A DNA stretch of 60,796 nucleotides, the filler included. It is 5 parts of 5 records of this genome, joined end to end, with 100 filler letters (N's around TTAATTAATTAA, not from the genome) between each part and the next. Parts side by side here need not be neighbours in the genome. Positions count along the whole stretch, not along the records: positions 11,645 to 33,434 come from SRR31156797_4895; 4 more parts are not named here. One strand, written 5' to 3'. The position numbers and the translations under genes are program-made. The notes beneath the pieces are model-generated. The model was not told the DNA's origin. It made no database searches and saw only the letters and a list, made by a program, of their open reading frames with translations. The first letter of the stretch is position 1. Every line of letters begins with the position of its first letter. Of this stretch, positions 13,962-19,052 are shown piece by piece.

Positions 13962-16406
13962 ATGTCTGAAATAGTAAAGGAAAACAAAGAAGGGAATGAT
14001 GAAAATTTATCCTTTGAAGATTTTACTTCCGAAGTTCTTAAAGATTATCGCATAGCTAATATTAGTCGTCAATTAAGTATTTTGGGGCGAAAAGAAGTAC
14101 TTACCGGAAAAGCTAAATTTGGTATTTTTGGCGACGGAAAGGAAATCGCTCAAATTGCAATGGCAAAATCGTTCAAGGAGGGGGATTGGAGATCTGGATA
14201 TTATCGAGATCAAACATTTATGCTGGCCTCTGGAATGCTAACCCCTGAGGAATTTTTCGCACAACTGTTTGGGGAAACTCAGATAGATAAGAATCCGGCA
14301 AATGGAGGTCGTTTAATGAACAATCATTATGCTTCAAGAAGTTTGAACGAAGATGGGAGTTGGAAGGACTTAACAAAGCAAAAAAATTCATCAGCAGATA
14401 TTTCTCCTACAGCAGGTCAGATGCCTCGATTATTAGGATTGGCGTATGCTTCTAAATTGTTCAGAGAAAACAAAGAATTACATCAATTCAACAAATTTTC
14501 TATAAAAGGAAATGAAGTTGCTTTTGGAACTATTGGAGATTCAAGTACATCAGAAGGACATTTTTGGGAGACCATTAATGCAGCGGGTGTTTTAAAAGTA
14601 CCAATGGCAATGAGTGTTTGGGATGATGGTTGGGGGATTTCTGTCCCGAACAAATATCAAACAACCAAATCGAATATCTCAGAAGTTTTAAAAGGCTTTG
14701 AGCAAGATGAAAATGGTGATGGATATCTAATATACAAGGCTAAAGGATGGGATTATCCAGCTCTTTGTAAAATGTATGTAGAAGGAGTTGAACTTTGCCG
14801 TAGAGATCATATACCAACATTATTTCACGTAACTGAAATGACTCAACCTTTAGGACATTCAACTTCAGGATCGCATGAAAGATACAAGACAAAGGAGCGA
14901 TTGGAATGGGAGAAAGAATTTGATCCAATCAAAAAAATGAGAGAATGGATTCTTTCAATGGAGCTGGTTGAAGGTGCAAAATTGGATGAAATAGAAGCTG
15001 ATGCCATCGAAGAAGTGAAACAAGCCCGTAAGGCGGCATGGAAAACTTTTATCGATCCGATTAAAAAGGAACGTGATAATTTGATCAAGTTGGTTGAAAA
15101 TGCCGGCTGTGATTGCAAAAAAACGGAAAGAATTGACGCTATCACCAATGGATTAAAGAAAATTATTAATCCGGTACGTAAAGATAATGTTAGTGCTGCG
15201 AAGAAAATTCTAAGACACATTTGTTCAACCTGTGAAAGTTTTAAACCATTAAAATCTCAGTTGCAAGAATGGTTAAAGAATACGATTGAAGAGAATCATG
15301 AAAGATATAGTAGTTATTTGTATTCCGAAACAGAATTAGGCATCCAGAATATAAAAGCTGTTGATCCAATATATAGTGATACCTCTAAAACTGTGAATGG
15401 TCGGGAAGTACTTCGTGATAATTTTGAGAAACTCTTCACTAAATATCCATTGCTTTTGACCTTTGGTGAAGATACTGGCTTTATTGGTGGTGTGAATCAA
15501 AGTTTAGAAGGAATGCAGGAAAAGTTTGGTGAGTTAAGAGTTACCGATACCGGAATTCGCGAAGCTACCATTCTAGGGCAAGGTATTGGCTTAGCTTTAC
15601 GAGGAATGCGTCCAATTGCTGAAATTCAGTATTTTGATTATCTATTGTATGCTTTGCAAACCATGAGTGATGATTTGGCAACCATGCAATATCGTACCAA
15701 AGGTGGTCAAAAAGCGCCGGTGGTAATTCGTACGCGTGGTCATAGACTTGAGGGGATTTGGCATTCAGGTTCTCCGTTAAGTATGGTTATAAATTCTATC
15801 CGTGGGGTACATGTTTGTGTTCCAAGAAACATGACTATTGCTGCAGGATTATACAATACACTTTTAGAATCGGATGAACCAGCTTTGGTTATTGAACCAT
15901 TGAATGGATATCGATTAAAGGAAAAGCTTCCTGACAATTTGGGAGAGTTTAAAACTTCGTTGGGAGTACCTGAGGTTTTAAATGAGGGTTCGGATATTAC
16001 TTTGGTAACTTATGGATCATGTGTTCGAATTGCAGAAGATGCAGTTAAGCAATTGAAAGATTTTGATATTTCAGTGGAACTAATTGATGTACAAACATTA
16101 CTGCCATTTGATGTGAACAGTCGAATTCTTGAATCTGTTAAAAAGACAAATCGAATTGTATTTTTCGATGAGGATGTTCCAGGTGGAGCAACTGCATTTA
16201 TGATGCAGAAGGTTTTGGAAGATCAAAAGGCATACTTTTACCTAGATTCAGAGCCTAAAACAATTACAGCAAAAGATCATCGTCCGGCTTATGGAACAGA
16301 TGGAGATTATTTCTCAAATCCTAATGCAGAGGATGTTTTTGAATTAATCTATGAGATAATGAGGGAGTCAAATCCAGATAAATTTCCTTCGATATATATT
16401 AATTAG
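13962..16406 (+). CDS. 2-oxoacid dehydrogenase E1, fused alpha/beta
   Basis: GYYRD, TPP-binding GDSSTSEG, GHSTSG, DTGIREA, AEIQYFDY, transketolase C-terminal domain. Confidence 0.9.
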   Translation: MSEIVKENKEGNDENLSFEDFTSEVLKDYRIANISRQLSILGRKEVLTGKAKFGIFGDGKEIAQIAMAKSFKEGDWRSGYYRDQTFMLASGMLTPEEFFAQLFGETQIDKNPANGGRLMNNHYASRSLNEDGSWKDLTKQKNSSADISPTAGQMPRLLGLAYASKLFRENKELHQFNKFSIKGNEVAFGTIGDSSTSEGHFWETINAAGVLKVPMAMSVWDDGWGISVPNKYQTTKSNISEVLKGFEQDENGDGYLIYKAKGWDYPALCKMYVEGVELCRRDHIPTLFHVTEMTQPLGHSTSGSHERYKTKERLEWEKEFDPIKKMREWILSMELVEGAKLDEIEADAIEEVKQARKAAWKTFIDPIKKERDNLIKLVENAGCDCKKTERIDAITNGLKKIINPVRKDNVSAAKKILRHICSTCESFKPLKSQLQEWLKNTIEENHERYSSYLYSETELGIQNIKAVDPIYSDTSKTVNGREVLRDNFEKLFTKYPLLLTFGEDTGFIGGVNQSLEGMQEKFGELRVTDTGIREATILGQGIGLALRGMRPIAEIQYFDYLLYALQTMSDDLATMQYRTKGGQKAPVVIRTRGHRLEGIWHSGSPLSMVINSIRGVHVCVPRNMTIAAGLYNTLLESDEPALVIEPLNGYRLKEKLPDNLGEFKTSLGVPEVLNEGSDITLVTYGSCVRIAEDAVKQLKDFDISVELIDVQTLLPFDVNSRILESVKKTNRIVFFDEDVPGGATAFMMQKVLEDQKAYFYLDSEPKTITAKDHRPAYGTDGDYFSNPNAEDVFELIYEIMRESNPDKFPSIYIN

Positions 16407-16427
16407 ACTTATTTTAAGTAAAGTTTT

Positions 16428-16460
16428 AATCCGTAAATATTTATTTACGGATTTTTTTGT
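16428..16460 (+). terminator. Intrinsic terminator after E1
   Basis: AATCCGTAAATA-tt-TATTTACGGATT plus T-run. Confidence 0.85.
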
Positions 16461-16464
16461 TCCA

Positions 16465-16492
16465 TGTCACCCATTATTACGTACTACTTGTT
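16465..16492 (+). promoter_or_regulatory. Putative ECF-sigma promoter, unit 1
   Basis: TGTCACC-N17-TGTT; recurs at 16689 and 16950. Confidence 0.6.
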
Positions 16493-16499
16493 ATATAAA

Positions 16500-16646
16500 T
16501 GTTCGAAAGATTAAAAGTAGTCTTTTGAAAAAACTTTTAGTTAGTAATAGTTGGATGTAATGTGGTAATTCTTACAACAATAATGACTAATCGAGCTCAA
16601 ATATAAAGAGCAACAGCCGTTTCTTTGAGACGGCTGTTTTTTGTTT
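16500..16646 (+). ncRNA. Putative sRNA, unit 1 of tandem array
   Basis: 5' hairpin 16502-16529; core TTTTAGTTAGT 16535; terminator AACAGCCGTTTC/GAGACGGCTGTT 16612-16638 plus T-run. Confidence 0.6.
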
Positions 16647-16688
16647 AAAATGATATTTATTCAAAATAAGACAAATTTGTCGATTCTT

Positions 16689-16716
16689 TGTCACCCATTT
16701 TTCGAATAAGGCTGTT
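16689..16716 (+). promoter_or_regulatory. Putative ECF-sigma promoter, unit 2
   Basis: TGTCACC-N17-TGTT, followed by AATGTTCGA at the same offset as unit 1. Confidence 0.6.
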
Positions 16717-16723
16717 TTAGTAA

Positions 16724-16875
16724 TGTTCGAGGAGAGAATTAGGGGTCTTGAATTGAATGTTTTTAGTATGTAGTGCCTATGTAATTAGGTGATGTAAAAA
16801 TATCAGGGCACAATTTTAAAGGGCTATATCATATAGCAATAAGCAGTCATTCTTAGGGGGAGTGACTGTTTTTTT
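16724..16875 (+). ncRNA. Putative sRNA, unit 2
   Basis: TTCGAGG/TCTTGAA 5' hairpin; core TTTTAGT..ATGTAAT..GGT; terminator GCAGTCATTC/GAGTGACTGT 16843-16869 plus T-run. Confidence 0.55.
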
Positions 16876-16949
16876 ATGTCTAAATCTCAGTTCATAAAAT
16901 AGTTAATACTAAGGCAAGCATGTTAAATTTTGTTAAAAATGAATTTGCC

Positions 16950-16976
16950 TGTCACCTTTTTACAATTTTACACGTC
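16950..16976 (+). promoter_or_regulatory. Putative ECF-sigma promoter, unit 3
   Basis: TGTCACC-N16-CGTC. Confidence 0.6.
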
Positions 16977-16983
16977 TTTAGAG

Positions 16984-17112
16984 TATAAGTTTTTAGTTAG
17001 TGTTGGTTTGATACATTGTGGTTAGTGGTAAAATTGTCGTAATAGATAATTACAAATCAACATAAAATATAAACCTGGCATTATTCTTTTCTGTAGAATG
17101 CCAGGTTTTTTG
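16984..17112 (+). ncRNA. Putative sRNA, unit 3
   Basis: Core 16991-17022 is 25/32 identical to unit 1; stem TGTTGGTTTG/CAAATCAACA; terminator AAACCTGGCATT/AATGCCAGGTTT, probably also serving the convergent nhaC-family gene. Confidence 0.55.
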
Positions 17113-17114
17113 TT

Positions 17115-19052
17115 CTAATATCTTTTTCCAATAAATTTTACAATTAAAAATAGAATTGTAAAGCCCAGTGGAATTAAAAGCCATGAAGAGACTCCGTAAG
17201 CGGCAGGTAATAAACCGGCAAAAATAGCAACAGATCCAACGGTTAATGCATAAGGTAGTTGGGTTCTGACGTGTTCTATATGATTACATGAACTTGCTAA
17301 AGAGCTAAGAATAGTGGTATCTGATATCGGCGAACAATGATCACCTAAAACTGATCCTGCAAGAATAGCAGAAACCGTTATATAGAAAATATTCATACTC
17401 TCAATGTCATTCATTCCAGCGGAGTGACAAAGAGCCCAGGAAGCTGGCAATATTAAAGGATAAAGAATAGCCATCGTACCCCAGGATGAGCCTGTTGAAA
17501 AAGCAATTAAAGCAGATAATATAAATGTAAATGTAGGCAAGAATTCAGGTGGAACATCTGTGGCAATTAATAAATTGGATATAAAATCAGCAGTATGCAT
17601 ATCTTTTGTAATATCAGCCAGCGCCCAAGCCAAAATTAAAATAAGTATTGCTGTAAGCATAGTTTTAAAACCACTTACCAACGCATCAATGGTTTTTTTA
17701 AGGTTTAAAATACCTTGACTAATACTTAATGCTGCAGCTACCAAGACAGCAGAAAGTGATGACCACAATAAGGCTAAATAGGAATCGGAAGATCCAATGA
17801 TATGGGATAGTTTGGTGCCAAATGCTATATTTGAATCGTTCCAAATAGTTGTATCCCAACCTGTATATATTAATCCTGCAAAAGTTCCTAATATTACTAT
17901 TAATACAGGAATTCCAGCATTGTACCAACGTGTTGGTATATTTTCTGATATATGGATGCTTTCTTCTTCATTTAATTTTTCTTTTGAGACTATATTTTCA
18001 GGATTTCGTTCACTGGTTCGACTTCTTTTTTCAGCTTTATACATTGGACCAAAATCCCTTTTCATAATAACTAACATTAGAATGAAAAATAGGGTAAAGA
18101 AAGGATAAAAGCGGGTCGGCAATGAATTCAAAAATATACTATAAGGACTTTCGTCGATATTTATTTGAGTGGTAGCTGATTGAATGTAACTCAACTCAAT
18201 TCCAATCCAGGTTGTAATCATGGCAATAGATGCAACAGGAGCAGCTGTAGAATCAACAATATAAGCCAATTTTTCTCTTGAGATTTTCAACTTATCTGTT
18301 ACAGGTCTCATTGTATTGCCAACTACCAAGGTATTTGCATAGTCATCAAAGAAAATAAGTACGCCCAATATCCAGGTAACAAATTGTCCTGATCGGTGAC
18401 TGTTTGCAAATTTTGATAGTTTATTTACTACTCCTTGCATACCTCCATTTTTTGTAATAAGGTTTACCATAGCACCTATTAACATTGAAAATACAATTAT
18501 TGATATATGACCTGAGTCGGTTAAAGATTGAATGATATAGGTATCGGAAATGGCAAATATTGCTTTAAAAAATGCAGTTAAAATTGATCCTTCTTGGAAG
18601 GTGTAAATAATTAAAGTGCCAGAAAATAAGCCTACAAATAATGCTGAAAACACTTCCTTAAATAACAAAGCCATTACAATGGCAATTAAAGGAGGTAATA
18701 TCGACATCCATAAGGGGATGGCTGAAAAGGATTTGGATTGTTCTAGATTGTATATTTGAACATTCACTTGCTGTTTTCCTTTAAAAACAAATGGAATATG
18801 AATGTTGTTTTTAGTTGGAACGAGCTTAAAATGTTTTTGATTGACGAATACTTCTAAACTGTCATTTGTATTTTGCCATTCTTGATCAAGTAGAATTTTA
18901 ATTTCAGAATTTATGTCGGCAACTATTATTTTCGGCAATTCTATTTCAAAAGATGTAATTTGCTTTTTGGGTTGAATTGTAGAGGAAAAAACATAGTGAA
19001 AATTGGACAATAAAAATAGAAGGAGTATAGTTTGGGTTAAGTATTTGTACAT
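17115..19052 (-). CDS. NhaC-family Na+/H+ antiporter with N-terminal soluble extension
   Basis: IFFDDYAN, SREKLAYIVDSTAAP, FSTGSSWGT, GDHCSPISDTTILSS. Confidence 0.9.
   Translation of the reverse strand: MYKYLTQTILLLFLLSNFHYVFSSTIQPKKQITSFEIELPKIIVADINSEIKILLDQEWQNTNDSLEVFVNQKHFKLVPTKNNIHIPFVFKGKQQVNVQIYNLEQSKSFSAIPLWMSILPPLIAIVMALLFKEVFSALFVGLFSGTLIIYTFQEGSILTAFFKAIFAISDTYIIQSLTDSGHISIIVFSMLIGAMVNLITKNGGMQGVVNKLSKFANSHRSGQFVTWILGVLIFFDDYANTLVVGNTMRPVTDKLKISREKLAYIVDSTAAPVASIAMITTWIGIELSYIQSATTQINIDESPYSIFLNSLPTRFYPFFTLFFILMLVIMKRDFGPMYKAEKRSRTSERNPENIVSKEKLNEEESIHISENIPTRWYNAGIPVLIVILGTFAGLIYTGWDTTIWNDSNIAFGTKLSHIIGSSDSYLALLWSSLSAVLVAAALSISQGILNLKKTIDALVSGFKTMLTAILILILAWALADITKDMHTADFISNLLIATDVPPEFLPTFTFILSALIAFSTGSSWGTMAILYPLILPASWALCHSAGMNDIESMNIFYITVSAILAGSVLGDHCSPISDTTILSSLASSCNHIEHVRTQLPYALTVGSVAIFAGLLPAAYGVSSWLLIPLGFTILFLIVKFIGKRY

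Follow-up and report, generated by a model that had tools for sequence, protein, structure and literature searches.

Three tandem candidate sRNA genes of Marinifilum whose conserved cores are predicted to pair with leaders of SusC/TonB-dependent transporter mRNAs

A 648-bp intergenic gap lies between the gene for a fused 2-oxoacid dehydrogenase E1 and a convergent nhaC gene, and the three similar modules that fill it raise the question of whether they are sRNA genes and, if so, which mRNAs they would act on and which signal would switch them on. The original prediction regarded them as sibling trans-acting sRNAs, all transcribed by one ECF sigma factor in response to envelope stress. Within the window (the whole stretch of DNA analysed, 60.8 kb), the gap resolves into three promoter-core-terminator units, arranged as follows:

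13962..16406, plus strand: E1 gene, fused 2-oxoacid dehydrogenase E1 alpha/beta, upstream neighbour (context)
16428..16460, plus strand: intrinsic terminator of the E1 gene (hairpin 16428-16453), insulating the array
16465..16495, plus strand: unit 1 promoter, class A (GTCACCC-N16-TGTTATA), a motif also found before fecR of one ECF locus
16499..16642, plus strand: unit 1 candidate sRNA, ~144 nt from a putative start, with 5' hairpin 16502-16529, antisense core, and terminator 16612-16638 followed by a U tract
16527..16573, plus strand: antisense core of unit 1, with three blocks of complementarity to the BT2264/Omp121-type susC leader of genome G001
16689..16719, plus strand: unit 2 promoter, class A
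16723..16875, plus strand: unit 2 candidate sRNA, ~153 nt, with UAGGGG-loop 5' hairpin, variable core 16759-16812 and terminator 16841-16871
16950..16979, plus strand: unit 3 promoter, a variant with a CGTC -10 element and a spacer one base shorter
16984..17112, plus strand: unit 3 candidate sRNA, ~129 nt, with unpaired 5' seed, central multi-stem and terminator 17071-17108; pairing core 16984-17031
17115..19052, minus strand: NhaC-family Na+/H+ antiporter gene, downstream and convergent with the array (context)

Every feature that had been described for the three modules was recovered in its place. The gap holds no ORFs beyond five short ones of 22-44 aa, each unit has an ECF-type promoter (TCACC-spacer-YGTY) and its own terminator hairpin, the cores of units 1 and 3 are identical at 25 of 32 positions, and a terminator-like hairpin follows E1 upstream of the array. 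The pattern TGTCACC-N15..18-YGTY occurs three times in the window, always in the array (16465, 16689 and 16950, with spacings of 17, 17 and 16 nt), against a chance expectation of 0.13, and none of 100 shuffles reaches three; a sigma-70 promoter scan gave 3 sites where 5.8 were expected. Folding z-scores against shuffles, terminators included, are -5.2, -3.8 and -5.0 for units 1, 2 and 3. The terminator of unit 3 is a perfect 12-bp inverted repeat with a 14-nt loop and, since nhaC lies on the minus strand and converges on the array, probably terminates nhaC as well. The AATG shared by the starts of units 1 and 2 is present, but ATG is found in only 9 of 34 unit-1 homologues. Four RNA runs provided low-depth contigs over parts of the array and both flanking genes, with no discrete ends. 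From this anatomy, each unit would form its own transcript, with the putative start sites listed above.

Judged by its E1 gene, which is 99% identical to a Marinifilum record (L001, genome G001) and 84-92% identical to those of other Marinifilum, Labilibaculum and Ancylomarina, the window comes from a Marinifilum. By a covariance model built from 34 unit-1 copies, with strict filters on its matches, 23 of 97 Marinifilaceae genomes have the family and none of 149 other Bacteroidales genomes sampled does, and the exact core pattern occurs in 3 of 400 other Bacteroidales, which is the control level. Four weak matches of the model (E 0.002-0.007) proved to be gene ends with terminators. A metagenome search returned two loci, each a near-identical Marinifilum array; six viral matches were set aside for lack of unit anatomy. 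Most copies sit after E1, one to four per genome and in differing combinations. In the window, the unit-1 model also detects unit 2 (E 3e-7) and unit 3 (E 0.008), which supports their paralogy; promoter, core and terminator are all kept in relatives, and the proposal of sibling trans-acting sRNA genes is supported. Comparison with Rfam yielded 12 weak matches, all far under the gathering scores, and hence no named family. Literature searches of openly readable text on Marinifilum and Marinifilaceae sRNAs and on the promoter motif found no description of the family and nothing relevant on the motif. This is a conserved and previously undescribed family of candidate sRNAs.

In the RNAalifold consensus for the type-1 alignment, misalignment led to wrong pairing of the 5' hairpin, and a structure set by hand was used instead. 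The 5' hairpin is predicted in all 34 unit-1 copies although their sequences differ. In the hand-set structure 16 of 24 pairs are altered on both sides, including 7 of 9 in the 5' hairpin and 8 of 8 in the terminator, and 87.9% of cells pair compared with 32-54% when the structure is slid, counts that are biased upward by the manual setting and inflated by the relatedness of the sequences. Both hairpins covary. The units combine an own promoter, an intrinsic terminator and a conserved structure with no conserved ORF, as is generally required of trans-acting base-pairing sRNAs.

Several variations on the array have been observed. Labilibaculum-like arrays contain a fourth unit type (L002:7747-7950, L026:7746-7950 and equivalents in L101, L103, L104 and L264) with a GCAACC-type promoter and a partly different core, matched by the model at E 1e-9 to 1e-13. 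In some Labilibaculum-like genomes an extra type-1 copy at a separate locus (L099, L102, L119, L267, L268) has an added upstream hairpin and no TCACC box. In several genomes the units are separated by inserted genes or mobile DNA (L007:7700-12300, L027:7960-8450, L026:7950-8251), and the array therefore appears to be an insertion hot spot.

As the three cores of G001 are identical to those of the window, targets were read from this close relative rather than from the window's own genome. The cores were scored against 39 hand-curated leaders of TonB-dependent transporters and 70 control leaders (109), and later against 253 leaders in total, a small fraction of the G001 genome. Unit 1 pairs with a BT2264/Omp121-type susC leader at -42.2 kcal/mol, the next best of the 109 leaders reaching -25.4, and this duplex is also the best among the 253; unit 3 has the same best leader (-38.4 kcal/mol), and unit 2 prefers that of an Oar-like TonB-dependent transporter (-35.2 kcal/mol). 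Shuffled cores have a mean best over the 109 leaders of -23.4, -25.0 and -27.4 for units 1, 2 and 3, and for each unit none of 40 shuffles equals the observed energy. The top leaders of all three units are unchanged in the wider set, and full-length co-folding keeps them (-28.5, -20.2 and -23.8, against medians of -4 to -6). Unit 3 also pairs with a RagA-like susC (-30.6 kcal/mol, with 19 contiguous pairs extending to the AUG) and with the susC next to it (-30.0 kcal/mol). The two susC genes in question are located as follows:

G001:C1, gene start near 159566, minus strand: Omp121-type susC, predicted target of units 1 and 3, closest solved relative BT2264/Omp121
G001:C1:705731, minus strand: RagA-like susC, candidate target of unit 3

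Searched with a following ATG, the anti-seed (the shared seed in reverse complement) has seven matches in G001, four directly at SusC starts and three at no real gene; the genome has 24 full-length SusC genes. The pattern is not commoner than its reversed control (7 vs 15) and is striking by location only. The duplex of unit 1 consists of three blocks covering most of the ~60-nt Omp121-type leader, whose start is deduced from a sigma-A-like box, and the type-1 seed is predicted to be only ~40% unpaired in most copies. What is new here is that, by computed complementarity, conserved cores are antisense to the 5' leaders of particular mRNAs for SusC/TonB-dependent transporters in G001. The Omp121-type susC is the predicted main target, of units 1 and 3, and the RagA-like susC (unit 3) and the Oar-like transporter (unit 2) are weaker candidates. 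BT2264, the sole close solved relative of the unit 1 target, is an abundant and peptide-binding protein. RagAB is a peptide importer as well, and in P. gingivalis it ranks among the most abundant proteins of the outer membrane, according to the available text of 10.1101/755678.

Conservation of the pairing was followed in 24 genomes, a non-random sample picked for a core match in themselves or in genomes listed next to them. The Omp121-type site is matched in 19 of the 24 and the RagA-like site in 15, with zero control matches. Against the Omp121-type leader of their own genome, type-1 copies reach a mean of -41 (range -28 to -50, 29 pairs) and type-3 copies a mean of -37 (19 pairs), in a set where two cores were mis-trimmed and are longer. 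Type-3 copies average -25 with their own RagA-like leader (15 pairs), within the shuffle range (-27.4 +/- 2.2), and only the window and G001 show strong pairing of this kind (-30.6). The 34 type-1 copies were compared at 31 pairing positions; among the 1054 cells, Watson-Crick pairs account for 989 and G-U pairs for 35. The antisense blocks are the most conserved part of the RNA (column identity 0.94 vs 0.74). At one intermolecular position the pair is A-U in nine genomes, U-A in six and the window, and mismatched in two, a count that omits G051 and the G068 copy used, where the block is absent. Of 20 genomes with the RNA, 19 have an intact 5' block in the Omp121-type leader, against none of nine without it; in the exception, G051, the RNA is changed there too. 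The two 3' blocks are nearly intact in nine genomes where no RNA copy was found; the leader is therefore constrained for reasons of its own, and its conservation alone is no proof of pairing. The covariation seen in nature at one position and the co-occurrence of one block hint at seed-mediated regulation, but both track kinship and amount to few independent events; the tree of SusC N-termini is mosaic and uninformative on species history. As a separate observation, ~35-45 nt of non-coding leader are nearly invariant in at least 29 genomes, RNA-less ones included (L235-L259, L478-L481, L495-L515), which suggests a further conserved reader, for example a protein or a translation enhancer.

Unit 2 is less uniform. 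In G062, G064, G065, G067 and G068 it has a different core, which pairs with the Omp121-type leader of its own genome through other blocks (about -38 in four genomes, -29.5 in G068). The pairing with Oar is not kept in G063, G065 and G068; in G049 the seed is present and no Oar orthologue was found, and a search for an alternative unit-2 target in G049 and G050 found none.

From the computed anatomy, conservation, hairpin covariation, complementarity and promoter distribution, we infer that the units quite probably act as ECF-activated trans-acting repressors, which would pair in vivo with the mRNAs of major SusC importers and occlude their initiation region. In the proposed mechanism, an ECF sigma factor would start each of the three paralogous sRNAs independently, and the 5' hairpin (units 1 and 2) and the terminator hairpin would protect the RNA ends. 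The U/G-rich core would form a duplex of 30-45 nt with the short, A-rich leader of an mRNA for a SusC/TonB-dependent transporter, and this duplex would cover the A-rich stretch just upstream of the start codon, blocking translation. Upstream adenines serve in Bacteroidia in place of Shine-Dalgarno pairing, as stated in the accessible part of PMC13000457. A gene with an RRM domain (PF00076) was not found in G001, G057 and G069, with a positive control in B. thetaiotaomicron, nor CsrA in five genomes, so that no known chaperone can be named for these genomes.

An alternative, considered unlikely, is that the units are decoys for a protein recognising UAGGGG-loop hairpins, the antisense core being a relic of an inverted susC leader or a side function. 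In many copies, UAGGGG/AAAGGG hairpin loops are found at the 5' hairpin, in the middle and at the terminator, the RagA-like susC leader of most of 15 genomes has as many as three or four, and multi-copy arrays would fit titration; yet unit 3 and the window's unit 1 lack the loop motif, it is the antisense blocks that are best conserved, the search for CsrA and RRM proteins gave no candidate, and ATTYTAAAGGG is weakly enriched genome-wide (13, 19, 22 vs 10, 4, 15). It is slightly less likely still that the RNAs pair with susC leaders but activate or stabilise the mRNAs. The unit 1 duplex begins near the deduced 5' end of the leader and ends before the AUG, and in one fold of a longer upstream segment the start region is sequestered; the short leader, however, is nearly unstructured (-6.2 kcal/mol), which leaves little to open, and the A-rich stretch ahead of the start codon lies within the duplex, unit 3 even reaching the RagA-like AUG. 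A reading of the units as DNA repeats or protein-binding sites, neither transcribed nor functional as RNA, is improbable: copy number and spacing do vary, other genes or mobile DNA lie between units and the RNA runs gave no discrete ends, but every unit has a strand-specific promoter and a U-tract terminator, the hairpins change on both sides of their pairs, the locus is fixed instead of being dispersed, and changes opposite the target are tolerated as G-U. Leaderless mRNAs for tiny peptides are scarcely credible, since the ATG TTC GA with which units 1 and 2 begin corresponds to ATG in 9, GTG in 8, TTG in 6 and a non-start codon in 11 of the 34 copies, in a frame of 5 to 50 codons, so that this reading is largely refuted.

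The strict class-A motif of units 1 and 2 has 52 matches in the 24 genomes against 4 for the control. By inspection, 23 lie in the array, 19 before a fecR-like gene, 6 before another sRNA-like element, 3 before a small membrane ORF and 1 elsewhere. Of those before fecR, 18 belong to one orthologous locus and one to another ECF locus, and near-matches precede fecR in G049 and G050. The locus encodes, in order, a C1 peptidase, a TIGR02985 sigma factor, a FecR-like anti-sigma, a long SusC, SusD and an Mx1 metallopeptidase, and an orthologue of the sigma factor was found in 20 of the 24 genomes. Within 1.5 kb around the 30 sigma-domain matches of G001, on the sense strand, the one full class-A match is that of the fecR locus. 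In units 1 and 2 only, the promoter is shared with the regulon of one ECF sigma factor, and these two units are most likely, with reasonable though not high confidence, read by the TIGR02985 sigma of this locus. This protein scores above the cut-off for TIGR02985 and far below that for RpoE (TIGR02939). Sigma-FecR-SusCD systems sense ligands, as described in the available text of PMC13472631. Since the class-A promoter is the one in front of fecR in a cell-surface-signalling ECF locus, it points to ligand sensing, and the envelope-stress signal originally proposed is not supported. If this sigma factor reads them, the signal that induces the peptidase-sigma-fecR-susC-susD-peptidase importer would also turn down housekeeping importers.

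The proposal of a single ECF sigma factor for the whole array is not supported either: unit 3 has a third promoter variant, unit 1 in most other Marinifilum genomes is driven by a second one (TCACCC-N16-TGTCT), and the G044 copy has a sigma-A-like box. The idea of one sigma factor and envelope stress is therefore too simple, and several sigma factors probably feed the family. The TCACCC-N16-TGTCT variant is also observed before DsbD/thioredoxin-like genes and before a gene for a cysteine-rich protein with a TonB receptor, labels taken from translations by inspection (L396, L399 and L413 in G001; L126, L129 and L132 in G057; L397 and L400 in G049; L410, L412 and L416 in G065). These conserved sites are a probable redox or metal-stress ECF regulon; loose promoter patterns, this variant included, are not enriched over controls, and only strict class A is. 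Separately, class-A promoters before ileS (L388, L419 and L373, in G052, G053 and G058) lie ahead of a small hydrophobic ORF, ~70-80 aa long and different from genome to genome.

Other RNA elements lie close to the family in sequence. A fourth sRNA candidate of ~95 nt directly follows a class-A promoter (L420, L377, L423, L425, L427 and L428, in G062, G063, G064, G065, G067 and G068) and combines a small hairpin and a strong terminator with a FopS-like UUUUUUCAUAG stretch antisense to ATG AAA AAA starts; it has no strong target among the G001 leaders (best -19.6). About 175 nt upstream, the RagA-like susC leader (L220-L234) carries its chain of up to three or four UAGGGG(UA)/AAAGGG-loop hairpins, with the same loops as many sRNA copies; it has no Rfam match and is possibly an undescribed cis-regulatory RNA motif. 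About 130 nt upstream of other susC genes (L100 in G056; L106 and L269 in G063), the shared seed and the second seed of unit 3 occur in a terminator-like hairpin that can pair with the initiation region of its own downstream gene, as a cis attenuator or gene-linked sRNA would. Further intergenic elements with the ATTCTAAAGGG motif are L340 (G057), which has a sigma-A box and a terminator and looks like another sRNA, and L341 (G069), whose opposite strand is rich in UUGGUUAGU.

These elements can be joined, tentatively and with more doubt than confidence, into a transporter-swap circuit new for Bacteroidota. FecR-type SusC signalling would transcribe an sRNA arm (the array and the fourth, FopS-like RNA) silencing major peptide importers, with other copies under the control of a redox-type ECF and of the housekeeping sigma factor. 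The UAGGGG-loop hairpins that the RNAs share with the RagA-like leader would be bound by an RNA-binding protein, in bacteria that gave no RRM or CsrA match, so that the RNAs would be both antisense and decoy.

Bacteroidota sRNAs with known targets are few and come mostly from gut Bacteroides. From sequence alone, a nearly complete circuit emerges here for free-living marine relatives, of which several are in culture. Its parts are named RNAs, the duplex predicted on a near-invariant leader, an Omp121-type importer and a candidate sigma factor. The complementarity predicts that the importers are probably switched off on arrival of a stress or nutrient signal. If this is true, ECF sigma factors of this phylum possess an RNA repressor arm, FecR-type nutrient signalling can reach unlinked transporters via RNA, and anti-susC sRNAs evolved more than once. 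The array would also be a model for long antisense pairing that blocks Shine-Dalgarno-independent initiation without a known chaperone.

In enterobacteria, MicA, RybB and MicL give sigma-E a repressor arm by silencing abundant outer-membrane proteins, using short seeds and Hfq in response to envelope stress. In contrast, pairing here would extend over 30-45 nt, SusC/TonB-dependent importers are the predicted targets, and the leading candidate for the sigma factor is an ECF coupled to FecR in surface signalling. The analogy with MicA and RybB drawn in the original prediction is therefore strengthened by the predicted targets, which are outer-membrane transporters, but not by the candidate sigma factor, which is not of the RpoE type. 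Bacteroides are reported to lack Hfq in the available part of PMC7366714. The array would share with DonS-type cis-antisense sRNAs the repression of a susC-containing locus by RNA in Bacteroidota (proposed here); in the available portion of PMC13750123, DonS acts as an antisense at its own polysaccharide utilization locus, whereas the array RNAs would pair imperfectly in trans, their predicted targets in G001 lying ~46 kb (RagA-like) and ~500 kb (Omp121-type) away. The accessible text of the same source, a 2026 review of gut-commensal sRNAs, contains no 'ECF' and lists no such family. For Flavobacterium, the available text of PMC9723704 describes ECF-type CGT promoters, one of them ahead of a putative regulatory RNA.

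GibS, as far as it is described in the available part of PMC7366714, is similar in its length of ~145 nt, long AU-rich seed, non-canonical promoter (PM2) and repression near start codons; its targets differ from those predicted here, and its R1 5' sequence, which it shares with FopS-10, occurs neither in the units nor in G001, even at two mismatches; membership in GibS was rejected. The closest parallel is FopS of Bacteroides thetaiotaomicron (Rfam RF04319), which represses susC by pairing with the start region (available text of PMC11697453). Both have multicopy paralogues, a U-rich extended seed, an intrinsic terminator and pairing at susC initiation regions, the last in silico here. By the same partial source, FopS RNAs are ~70 nt long, are transcribed from housekeeping sigma-ABfr promoters, place their R1 seed across the start codon and bind the RRM protein RbpB; the units, unlike them, are 130-155 nt long and in tandem, with ECF-type promoters, extra hairpins and predicted pairing mostly upstream of the AUG. 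Membership in FopS was rejected on four lines (model, seed, promoter and RRM partner): RF04319 has no match at E up to 10 in 15800-17800 (control L292, 77.5 bits), the R1 pattern is absent from G001 at up to 2 mismatches, the units align with 12 FopS-type loci no better than shuffles do, those loci have TAnnTTTG promoters whereas the units have TCACC-spacer-YGTY, and the PF00076 search for an RbpB partner found no gene in the three genomes named above. The best reading of this comparison is that the array RNAs would work like FopS, yet are not members of the FopS family.
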